From Escherichia coli (GTDB taxonomy: Bacteria; Pseudomonadota; Gammaproteobacteria; Enterobacterales; Enterobacteriaceae): a stretch of DNA of 64,000 nt. The notes beneath the pieces were generated by a model, which ran no database searches, had not been told where the DNA came from, and worked only from the letters and a program-made list of their open reading frames with translations. Location of the stretch: NCBI RefSeq assembly GCF_003334385.1, contig NZ_QOWN01000009.1; one strand, given 5' to 3'. Positions 13,314 to 23,595 of the stretch are shown one piece after another. Made by a program: the position numbers and the translations under genes. The stretch's first letter is position 1. Each line of letters begins with the position of its first letter.

Positions 13314-15512
13314 TTATCTCCTGCGCAACAATCTTAACGCATTCGCTGTCACCAGCACCGTCGCCCCCGTATCTGCCAGCACTGCCAGCCACAACCCGGT
13401 CATCCCTAACAGCGTGGTGACGAGGAAGATCCCTTTCAGCCCCAGCGCAATAGTGATGTTCTGGCGGATATTGGCGTGAGTGGCGCGTGCCAGTTCAATC
13501 ATTTGCACCAGGCCGCGCAGGTGGTTATGGGTTAATGCTGCGTCGGCGGTTTCCAGCGCCACGTCTGTGCCGCTACCCATTGCAATCCCGATGGCGGCAG
13601 CTTTCATCGCTGGCGCGTCGTTAATACCGTCACCGACCATCGCCAGCGGCGCATGTTGATTCAGCTCGGTCACCGCTTTGACTTTATCTTCCGGCAACAG
13701 GCCCGCTTTAAACTCCAGCCCCAGCTCCCCGGCAATTGCCGCCGCTGCGCGTGGATTATCGCCGGTGAGGATCACCCCTTTGACGCCCAGCGCGTTCAGT
13801 TCACTGATGGCAGTTGCAGCATCGGCGCGCAGGGTATCCTGTAACGCAATGACACCAAGCACGTCATCGTTACGTACTACCAGCACTACCGTTTGCCCGG
13901 CGCTTTCCAGTTCGTTAATTAAACCAGTAAATGCATCAGCGGGATGTTTCCCGGCAGCGCAAATCAATACGCGCTCACCGTTAACCTGCGCTTCAATGCC
14001 AGACCCGACCAGCGCCCGCTGTGATTCGGCGGTGGGAATGGCGAGTTCAGCAACCTGTGCTTCGCGTACGATGGCTTGCGCCAGTGGATGCGTCGCGCCT
14101 TGCTCGACCGCCGCCGCCAGTGTCAGCAGTTCAGATTCACTAATACCCGTTGCCGGATGAATCGCGGTAACGCGCGGTTTACCGACGGTCAGCGTACCGG
14201 TTTTATCAAACGCCACCTGAGTAACACGACCCAGCTGTTCCAGCGCCGCTCCGCCTTTAATCAACGCCCCACGACGCGCTGCCGCCGCCAGCCCGGAGGT
14301 AATCGCCGCAGGCGTTGAGATAACTAACGCACACGGGCAGCCAATCAGCAGCAGCGTCAGCCCTTTATAAATCCACTCCTGCCAGCTGGCGGCAAACAGC
14401 AGCGGTGGCACCAGCGTCACCAGCAGAGCGACGGCCATAATCGCGGGCGTATAGATACGGCTGAAACGGTCGATAAACCGCTCAATGGGAGCGCGACGCT
14501 CTTCGGCTTCTTCGATCAGTTTCAGAATCCGGTCAATGGCGCTGGCTCCCGGTTCTGACAGCACTTCCAACGTCACCAGACGGTCTACGCTGGTGGCACC
14601 AGCAGGGACTTTATCGCCCGTTGCGCGCTCCACCGGAATGGATTCGCCGGTCAGGGCGCTTTCATCAAAACTGGCAAACGGTGAGAGCAGTTTACCGTCG
14701 GCAGGCAAACGCCCACCTGCGGCGACTTCAATCACATCGCCAGGGCGCAGGCTGTTAATCGCCACCTCTTCCCGCTCACCCTTACGCAGGCGCGTGGCGG
14801 TTTCTGGTTTCAGCGCCATTAACGCGCTAACGCCCTGACGCGCGCGGCTGGCGGCCCAGCCTTCCAGTCGTTCACCAATCAAAAACAGCAGCAACACCAT
14901 CGCAGCTTCAGCCGTTGCGCCAATAAACAGTGCACCAATAGCGGCTACGCTCATTAAGGTTTCAATGGCGAAGTAGCTGCCGGATTTGATCAACCGTAAT
15001 GCCTGACGAGCAATCGGGTACAGCCCAACCAGCGTGGTCGCGATAAACGCCAGTTGCCCGAACGGATGATTGAACTGCTCCAGACCCCAGCTGATTGCCA
15101 TCATCACGATTAGCGTAATCAGCGGCAGATTCTCTTTCAGGCGTGATGCTTGCGGTTCTTCGGCGGCCTGTTCATCGCGCAGGGAATAGCCTGCTTTTTG
15201 CAGCGCAGATTCAACTTGTGCACGAATGTCATTGTCGGCATCGACCACCAGTTTTTCGGTGGCGAACAACACCTGCACCTGATTCACGCCTGCAAGCTGG
15301 CGCACGGCATTTTCTACCTTGCGCGCACAGGCGGCGCAGTCCATGCCGCTGACTTTCCAGCTATAGCGGGTGCCGGAGACGTTTTCAGAGAGAGTTGGCG
15401 TGCTGGAACATGCGCCGTCGCAGCAACAGTCGTTGGCGTTCTGTACCGTGGTTAGCGGTTTGAACGCAGCAAATTGAGGGGCTTTCTTGCCGTGATTGTC
15501 AGGAGTCGACAT
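13314..15512 (-). CDS. zntA: Zn/Cd/Pb-exporting P1B-type ATPase ZntA
   Basis: 732 aa ORF with N-terminal metal-binding GMDCAAC, CPC transmembrane motif (IGCPCALVISTP), DKTGTLT phosphorylation site and GDGINDAPA. Confidence 0.96.
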   Translation of the reverse strand: MSTPDNHGKKAPQFAAFKPLTTVQNANDCCCDGACSSTPTLSENVSGTRYSWKVSGMDCAACARKVENAVRQLAGVNQVQVLFATEKLVVDADNDIRAQVESALQKAGYSLRDEQAAEEPQASRLKENLPLITLIVMMAISWGLEQFNHPFGQLAFIATTLVGLYPIARQALRLIKSGSYFAIETLMSVAAIGALFIGATAEAAMVLLLFLIGERLEGWAASRARQGVSALMALKPETATRLRKGEREEVAINSLRPGDVIEVAAGGRLPADGKLLSPFASFDESALTGESIPVERATGDKVPAGATSVDRLVTLEVLSEPGASAIDRILKLIEEAEERRAPIERFIDRFSRIYTPAIMAVALLVTLVPPLLFAASWQEWIYKGLTLLLIGCPCALVISTPAAITSGLAAAARRGALIKGGAALEQLGRVTQVAFDKTGTLTVGKPRVTAIHPATGISESELLTLAAAVEQGATHPLAQAIVREAQVAELAIPTAESQRALVGSGIEAQVNGERVLICAAGKHPADAFTGLINELESAGQTVVLVVRNDDVLGVIALQDTLRADAATAISELNALGVKGVILTGDNPRAAAAIAGELGLEFKAGLLPEDKVKAVTELNQHAPLAMVGDGINDAPAMKAAAIGIAMGSGTDVALETADAALTHNHLRGLVQMIELARATHANIRQNITIALGLKGIFLVTTLLGMTGLWLAVLADTGATVLVTANALRLLRRR

Positions 15513-15549
15513 GGCATCCTCCGGTTAAGTTTTTTCTCATTAACCGAAG

Positions 15550-15580
15550 GATACACTCTGGAGTCGACTCCAGAGTCAAG
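15550..15580 (-). promoter_or_regulatory. zntA promoter with ZntR (MerR-family) operator: perfect 22-bp palindrome in the spacer
   Basis: Plus-strand actctggagtcgactccagagt at 15555..15576 is a perfect inverted repeat; on the minus strand it directly follows a TTGACT -35 hexamer, as in the known PzntA. Confidence 0.8.
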
Positions 15581-15585
15581 TTTTA

Positions 15586-16212
15586 TCAGAGATACAGCGA
15601 GCGGACGATCAGGAAGTGACCGGCAAAGTAGCAGGCCGCAGCAATCGCGTTATCCGCACGGAAGCGTCGGCGATAGTGGCTCCCCAGCCAGACAAAGTTA
15701 CTGATAAACAGCAACGAAGCGCCAACAAACGCAGAGAGCGCCGGAGCGGTCGGACGGAAGAACCACAGTTCACCTGCCAGCCACACCATCACCAGCGTCA
15801 TGCCGATAAACGTGCAGATAGGCCAACGGTACTCTTCCAGGCGCGTCCAGATAATCGCCAGTAACAGCGCACCCAGAACCAGCAGCACCAGTGGTAGAGG
15901 CCAGAAGAAAGAGAGCGTCATCTGACTGGCGAAATAGATGGTGTACAGCAGGTGCGAGAGGAAAAACGCGCCGATGGCGTACATCAGACGTTGACGTGGC
16001 AACAGGGTTAGCGCATCGCCCAGCAGTGAGGCGCACAGCCCTGCCAGCACCAGATAGCTAATGGCGTCGAACATCGGCGCTTGCCAGGCCAGTAACAGCA
16101 GGAGAAGAAGGGTTAACGGTTTAAACACCCAGCGTTGCCAGGTTGGCCCACGATACGATGCATCCACAGATAGCCATGCGGAAAGACAGACAGCGATAAA
16201 CGACCAAAGCAT
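15586..16212 (-). CDS. yhhN: YhhN-family integral membrane protein
   Basis: 208 aa hydrophobic [31 protein letters not shown]...; synteny. Confidence 0.85.
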
Positions 16213-23408: not shown

Positions 23409-23460
23409 TCATTAATCGGCAACTTTGGGTTGCCGCCAAATTGCTAATATCGAGTACGTT

Positions 23461-23567
<107 letters not shown>

Positions 23568-23595
23568 ATATCACTTTTGAAATCAAACTTGACGA

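Follow-up and report, generated by a model that had tools for sequence, protein, structure and literature searches.

Organization of the yhhN-zntA region

The DNA analysed here, a 64-kb stretch from Escherichia coli that is referred to throughout as the window, carries yhhN and zntA on its minus strand, with the promoter of zntA (PzntA) starting just past the end of yhhN (Table 1). The product of the zntA open reading frame scored 1449 bits against the NCBIfam model NF033775 (cut-off 1240), and this match, together with the RefSeq annotation, supports the preliminary description of this DNA, in which zntA was named as the regulated gene. The yhhN stop codon is followed by 6 bp and then by the −35 hexamer of PzntA, and inspection of both strands located a palindrome of 22 bp, ACTCTGGAGTCGACTCCAGAGT, which begins 9 nt past that stop codon. 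A repeat search resolved it into two arms of 11 nt each (15555-15565 and 15566-15576) that are 100% complementary and separated by a gap of 0 nt, confirming the perfect 22-bp palindrome that had been described. The interval originally given for it, 15550-15580, does contain the palindrome but is slightly wider than the actual element. Similarly, its placement between the two hexamers holds in that it fills the spacer and ends 1 bp before the −10; however, its first 3 bp (ACT) are common to the −35, and the two elements therefore overlap. The palindrome also contains a SalI site, GTCGAC.

Table 1. Coordinates of features in the zntA promoter region; positions are those of the window.
Feature	Position	Strand	Basis or remark
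yhhN (lysoplasmalogenase), upstream same-strand gene	15586..16212	-	Stop codon TGA at 15588-15586
−35 of PzntA, TTGACT	15579-15574	-	Last 3 bp are the first 3 of the palindrome; same −35 named in PMC3431237
ZntR operator, ACTCTGGAGTCGACTCCAGAGT	15555..15576	.	Perfect, unique and longest in the window; identical to the consensus in PMC1526738
Conserved core of the ZntR operator, 9-N4-9 (ACTCTGGAG-N4-CTCCAGAGT)			Arms near-invariant in 114 species genomes
Spacer of PzntA, exactly 20 bp	15573-15554	-	Counted on the sequence; 20 bp also in PMC1526738, PMC3431237 and PMC7911910
−10 of PzntA, TATCCT	15553-15548	-	Sequence; TAnnnT kept across species
Putative zntA transcription start	15541	-	Inferred from the usual sigma-70 geometry, 7 nt past the −10
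Shine-Dalgarno sequence of zntA, GGAGG	15522-15518	-	GGAG kept upstream of ATG in the cross-species alignment
zntA, Zn(II)/Cd(II)/Pb(II)-exporting P-type ATPase, 732 aa	13314..15512	-	ATG at 15512; NF033775; RefSeq annotation

The preliminary description had also assigned a TTGACT −35 and a −10 to the zntA strand, and both hexamers were found there, separated by exactly 20 bp where a spacer of about 20 bp had been expected. In its −35 (TTGACT), the length of its spacer (20 bp) and its dyad of 22 bp, the promoter agrees with the published PzntA (PMC1526738, PMC3431237). A generic promoter scan in which only spacers of 16-18 bp were allowed returned no conventional sigma-70 promoter between 15300 and 15800, and a mapped zntA transcription start was not found in the literature searched.

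The palindrome is real and non-random. ACTCTGGAGTCGACTCCAGAGT is present as a single copy in the window, also at a tolerance of 3 mismatches, compared to 0 copies expected from 100 shuffles, and no further ZntR site was found there when the complete 22-mer or the relaxed form 9-N4-9 was searched at this tolerance. When every possible centre was scanned, it was the longest uninterrupted perfect palindrome of the 64 kb, with an arm of 11, whereas the four next longest have arms of 7. Analytically, an arm of at least 11 is expected 0.016 times per 64 kb, and such an arm was reached in 2 of 200 first-order Markov simulations.

Assignment of the palindrome to ZntR

The operator is identical at 22 of 22 positions to the ZntR consensus printed by Permina et al. 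(PMC1526738), where this exact 22-mer is given as the ZntR site within the 20-bp promoter spacer. Hobman et al. 2012 (PMC3431237), citing Brocklehurst 1999, likewise give PzntA a −35 of TTGACT and a 20-bp spacer, and describe ZntR as an exception among the metal-sensing MerR regulators in having a spacer of 20 bp rather than 19 bp; a 20-bp spacer is also reported in PMC7911910. Parisutham et al. 2022 (PMC9189660) state a spacer of 19 bp for PzntA, which conflicts with our count of 20 and with the three other papers. As cited in PMC3431237, protection of DNA from DNase I by ZntR spans the hexamers and the spacer (Brocklehurst 1999, Outten 1999), and both there and in PMC9909328 these two studies are cited for footprinting with DNase I and for assays of DNA distortion. 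With a reporter in which ZntR was titrated, PzntA was nearly silent in the absence of ZntR, was mildly repressed by ZntR at low zinc and was activated about 10-fold at high zinc, while a ZntR site moved downstream acted as a pure repressor site; the binding energy of ZntR was given as −13.8 kBT (PMC9189660).

Taken with the promoter anatomy, the gene identities, the conservation and the presence of zntR observed in our analysis, this literature, from which binding, the switch and the distortion of the DNA are known, leaves us with hardly any doubt that the site is the ZntR operator-promoter of E. coli zntA. It is the already published ZntR site of PzntA, and the feature itself is not new. This is the textbook zinc-efflux switch, and its confirmation adds no new biology; its value here is that of a positive control, in that a MerR-type promoter was correctly recognized from raw sequence. 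What is new is the comparative footprint presented below, which, as read from aligned sequences, consists of near-invariant 9-bp arms at a fixed spacing around a free centre.

Conservation within E. coli and location of zntR

The 501 bp around the site were found in all 5426 complete E. coli genomes, many of them with 100% identity, including K-12 MG1655, where the matched 501 bp are annotated yhhN and zntA. The K-12 locus shows the same 22-mer, −35 and 20-bp spacer with zntA downstream, and the window maps one-to-one onto the K-12 gene table. Over its whole length the window is 99.93% identical to the K-12 MG1655 record NZ_CP032667.1 (32 substitutions in 63 kb). About 770 bp of that record, with an IS1A transposase near yrhA/yrhD, are absent from the window at about 37756-37767, some 22 kb from the operator. 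The 60-bp promoter core was at least 99% identical in 5398 of the 5426 E. coli genomes, compared to only 2128 of 5426 for the surrounding 501 bp. Only 28 of the 5426 genomes deviate within these 60 bp, and one of them, strain 2022H048 (NZ_AP029609.1, 303691-303790), carries a C-to-T change in the right operator arm (CTCCAGAG to CTCTAGAG), and this arm variant could serve as a natural test of operator strength.

The gene for the regulator lies outside the window. In the K-12 record, zntR (444245-444670) is 167 kb from zntA (274724-276922), and its product scored 247 bits against the ZntR equivalog model NF007069 (cut-off 143) and 206 bits, also above cut-off, against TIGR02043. No MerR homologue or zntR was detected within the 64-kb window (best tblastn E = 0.2). 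zntR adjoins arfA and lies immediately upstream of it (444245-444944 in the K-12 record). The two genes are reported to be co-transcribed, and PNPase decay of the non-stop arfA mRNA, coupled to trans-translation, to repress ZntR levels (PMC10107115), which would be an additional layer of control on the regulator acting at the zntA operator.

Cross-species footprint of the operator

In order to compare orthologous promoters independently of the operator, loci were selected with a degenerate pattern for the metal-binding motif of ZntA, GMDCAACARKVE, which is encoded about 230 nt downstream of the promoter. A scan of species-representative genomes gave at least 120 loci, of which 115 had enough upstream DNA. 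Among the matches listed, 114 of these 115 loci carry TTGACTCTGGAG-N4-CTCCAGAG at the same relative position. The operator-bearing loci come from at least 28 named genera of Enterobacteriaceae, and the sole locus lacking the operator among the matches listed belongs to Aureimonas, an alphaproteobacterium. In 108 of the 115 related loci among these matches, a YhhN homologue precedes zntA in the same orientation. One assembly labelled Chryseobacterium sp. 18061 (Bacteroidota; CACSKA010000004.1) contains a zntA promoter and leader of the Enterobacteriaceae type, with Pluralibacter-like sequences as its nearest relatives, which suggests that this assembly may be mislabelled or contaminated.

The promoters from the matches listed were aligned with MAFFT as 107 distinct sequences. 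Among these, the −35 TTGACT was invariant in 107 of 107, as were CTTGACTCTGGAG and CTCCA-AG, and no insertion or deletion was present between the −35 and the −10 in any of the 107 promoters. Variation in the matches listed was limited to the central 4 bp, the base beside the −10 and the inner positions of the −10, except for rare arm variants of only two kinds, namely CTCCAAAG in 5 sequences and a T-to-A change at the outermost arm position. The central 4 bp took 14 forms among the same matches (TCGA in 82 sequences, TCAA in 9, TAAG in 5, TCCA in 5, and others). The −10 of these matches occurred as TATCCT, TATGCT, TAACAT, CATACT, TAGGAT and other forms, in which A2 and T6 were conserved at 100% and T1 at 96%; this TAnnnT conservation fixes the register of the −10 and therefore supports the 20-bp spacer. 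In the flanking columns, identity dropped to 30-60% among the matches listed. Perfect symmetry over 22 bp was present in only 78 of the 115 loci among these matches and is thus not itself conserved. The constrained unit, as far as the alignment tells, is the 9-N4-9 arrangement rather than the full 22-bp dyad.

PzntA is widely used as a part of zinc, cadmium and lead biosensors. A footprint that combines 9-bp arms and an exact spacing of 20 bp with four free base pairs at the centre, the presumed kink site, could guide the design of such sensors.

An inverted repeat of this kind might also act as RNA, and the palindrome could, instead of or besides being an operator, form a hairpin that serves as a terminator or 3'-end stabilizer for yhhN or as an antisense terminator on the plus strand. 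The position fits, since the repeat begins 9 nt past the yhhN stop codon, and RNA folding predicted a stable hairpin on either strand (−17.9 and −16.3 kcal/mol, z-scores −2.3 and −2.5); a simple terminator scan also flagged the palindrome, on the plus strand only, with a stem of 9 pairs followed by CAAGTTTTAT. However, a terminator on the plus strand, which is antisense to both genes, would have no gene before it to act on, only antisense zntA, and on the minus strand, in the sense of yhhN, the stem is followed by GUGUAUCCUUCGG, without a U-tract. The pattern of variation also speaks against a hairpin. Among 106 distinct sequences from the matches listed, 7 of the 11 dyad pairs are the same throughout, no compensatory change was seen in the 9-bp arms, and the arm variants that do occur break the pairing, while the centre, which would form the loop, varies freely. 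It is the sequence and not the base-pairing that is conserved, which indicates a protein-binding site rather than an RNA hairpin. In addition, the −35 and the TAnnnT −10 are kept in a fixed register that a terminator would not need. Overall, we consider a role of the palindrome as an RNA hairpin very unlikely.

A Rho-independent terminator was rejected, as the stem on the yhhN/zntA strand is followed by GTGTATCCTTCGG, a short T-run is present only on the antisense plus strand, and there is no covariation. An RNA-family explanation was likewise rejected, as a scan of the window at the Rfam gathering thresholds returned only RyhB (40199-40263), and a permissive Rfam scan of 15450-15650 returned only sub-threshold matches to eukaryotic miRNA precursors (15-20 bits, compared to cut-offs of 80-90).

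Comparison with other MerR-family promoters and proposed switch

The copA promoter of the same genome, which is regulated by the MerR-family protein CueR, was compared with PzntA. PcopA consists of TTGACC, a 19-bp spacer and TAACCT, with the dyad ACCTTCC-N7-GGAAGGT. The two promoters have in common a −35 of the form TTGACN and a dyad whose edges lie at the fourth base of the −35 and 1 bp short of a weak −10. In both, the spacer is over-long, the downstream gene encodes a P-type ATPase for efflux and the regulator gene is unlinked (PMC9189660, PMC7911910). They differ in spacer length (19 bp in PcopA, 20 bp in PzntA) and in the dyad, which is 7-7-7 over 21 bp in PcopA and 9-4-9, or 11+11, over 22 bp in PzntA, and their half-site sequences are unrelated. 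Because the edges of the dyad are placed alike in the two promoters, the extra base pair of PzntA lies at the dyad centre. The promoters PmerT/MerR (Tn501, Tn21) and PpbrA/PbrR (Cupriavidus metallidurans) resemble PzntA in having a −35 of TTGACT and a dyad in the spacer, and in being repressed without metal and activated with metal by allosteric underwinding (PMC3431237, PMC9909328). Their spacers, however, are 19 bp compared to 20 bp for ZntR. The genes for MerR and PbrR usually sit beside the regulated promoter in divergent orientation; zntR, in contrast, is unlinked and does not control its own expression (PMC1526738).

These similarities raise the question of whether the site might serve mainly a different regulator, for example the MerR paralogue CueR, with ZntR being incidental. 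MerR-family operators are placed alike relative to the −35 and −10, and the paralogues are related, as reflected in weak scores of ZntR on the CueR, CadR and MerR models. Nevertheless, the CueR dyad of the same genome differs from the palindrome in both sequence and geometry (19-bp spacer), the titrated-ZntR reporters showed direct ZntR- and zinc-dependent control of PzntA (PMC9189660), and in the cited literature zinc induction was lost in a zntR deletion and kept in deletions of other MerR paralogues, all of which renders this alternative highly improbable. Chance symmetry, with a coincidental resemblance to a promoter, can be dismissed as next to impossible, because, although short palindromes do arise by chance (the window holds 18 with an arm of 6 and 4 with an arm of 7, and nothing else favours this view), an arm of 11 is expected only about 0.016 times in 64 kb, and the element is near-invariant in at least 28 named genera while its flanks diverge and equals the published ZntR site (PMC1526738).

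Returning to ZntR as the regulator of PzntA, the preliminary description had proposed a MerR-type architecture in which ZntR remodels an over-long spacer, and this proposal agrees with the anatomy, the 20-bp spacer, the identity of zntA and the cited literature. With a spacer of 20 bp instead of 17, the hexamers would have neither the distance nor the rotational phase that sigma-70 requires, so that the promoter alone would be almost silent. According to a review (PMC9909328), a spacer of 19-20 bp displaces the −10 and rotates it away from sigma region 2, and the ligand-bound dimer kinks the dyad centre, by which the hexamers are realigned. In the proposed mechanism, a ZntR dimer, encoded 167 kb away in K-12, would bind with one winged-helix domain on each 9-bp arm (ACTCTGGAG and CTCCAGAGT), a contact assignment that we infer from the footprint, and in its metal-free form would slightly repress the zntA promoter. 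Binding of Zn(II), Cd(II) or Pb(II) to ZntR would then cause the DNA to be kinked and underwound at the dyad centre, and the kinked centre would shorten and re-phase the spacer, allowing RNA polymerase to use both hexamers and the ZntA pump to be made. The freely varying central 4 bp would be in line with a centre at which the DNA is deformed and its bases are not read.

A second inverted repeat in the zntA leader

Between the −10 and the Shine-Dalgarno sequence, the minus strand of E. coli carries a second inverted repeat, with CGGTTAA at 15546-15540, a loop at 15539-15529 and TTAACCG at 15528-15522. Among the matches listed, this leader repeat is longer in most other genera of Enterobacteriaceae (CCGGTTAATGA-GAAAATTA-TCATTAACCGG; alignment columns 43-53 and 64-73), and its 30-bp consensus is CCGGTTAATGAGAAAATTATCATTAACCGG. 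In Mangrovibacter it seems to be replaced by CAGGCCCTG, in which a possible small hairpin was seen by eye. Unlike the operator, the leader repeat covaries: in the matches listed, pairing is kept in 91% of cells, and at 5 of the 10 pairs both sides have changed, one pair, for example, occurring as UA in 57 sequences and as GC in 23. The covariation score of the whole structure, which includes the operator and the extension helices, was reached by 0 of 500 shuffles. The hexamers TAATGA and TCATTA within the repeat resemble a Fur box, although they are 8 bp apart.

The 5' arm of the leader repeat starts 2 nt past the −10, before the putative transcription start at about A15541, and the 3' arm abuts the Shine-Dalgarno sequence. 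With the 5' arm placed in this way, the full hairpin should be found only in yhhN read-through RNA, or the repeat could act as DNA. The yhhN-zntA gap has no recognizable terminator, and in related loci among the matches listed the YhhN homologue mostly ends 6-13 nt before the −35. Read-through from yhhN into zntA is plausible because the stop codon lies 6 bp before the −35 and there is no recognizable terminator between the two genes. In folding predictions, the unpaired probability of the region from the Shine-Dalgarno sequence to the AUG was 0.485 for RNA from the inferred start, 0.266 for read-through RNA and 0.335 when the upstream part was shuffled. As the value was already 0.335 with shuffled upstream sequence, most of the masking effect is non-specific, which leaves a limited specific part, and the sequences cannot be counted as independent of one another. 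These predictions hint weakly that the leader repeat may mask the ribosome-binding site of zntA in read-through RNA.

As RNA, the repeat could be a structure of the yhhN read-through transcript or a hairpin at the 5' end; as DNA, it could be bound by another protein. In one such scheme, the leader repeat and the operator hairpin would fold only in yhhN read-through RNA and mask the zntA ribosome-binding site, which would confine translation of ZntA to transcripts started under ZntR activation; in an alternative version, the repeat might be the DNA site of a second regulator overlapping +1. We regard this scheme, in either version, as speculative and rather doubtful. Our search of the literature found nothing relevant on a stem-loop in the zntA leader. 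Of the elements described here, the leader repeat is the only one that might deserve new experiments.

A further pairing was observed between 15548-15552 and 15516-15520 on the minus strand, where a −10 of the TATCCT type and the bases that follow it, ATCCTTCGG or ATCCTCCGG (resembling an anti-Shine-Dalgarno sequence, CCTCC), pair with the Shine-Dalgarno region CCGGAGGAT. In E. coli and other species with TATCCT, this pairing lengthens the leader hairpin to 13-17 bp. Over all sequences among the matches listed, only 74.6% of cells pair in this extension, and there is little covariation. The sub-threshold Rfam matches to miRNA precursors can be attributed to this long hairpin potential of the leader.

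A half-site copy at the zntA start and other features of the window

At the start of zntA, codons 1-5 (15499-15510, minus strand) contain ATGTCGACTCCTGA, which matches the right half of the operator, GTCGACTCCAGA (15557-15568), at 11 of 12 positions, and in many other genera this copy of the operator half is exact (ATGTCGACTCCAGAG). The sequence GTCGACTCCTGA at the zntA start codon was considered as a conserved additional ZntR half-site and rejected; its synonymous positions vary freely across species (ACT/ACG/ACA/ACC and CCA/CCC/CCT), indicating that the copy is not constrained as a DNA site.

Elsewhere in the window, the small RNA RyhB is encoded on the plus strand at 40199-40263 (Rfam RF00057, 83 bits compared to a gathering score of 55) and is the sole Rfam family that reached its threshold in the window. 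Three intergenic repeat copies of about 110-118 bp, about 84% identical and with one pair inverted, are located after livJ, after livF and after glgP (23459-23579, 29288-29404 and 57499-57605); these copies probably belong to a known family of E. coli extragenic repeats.
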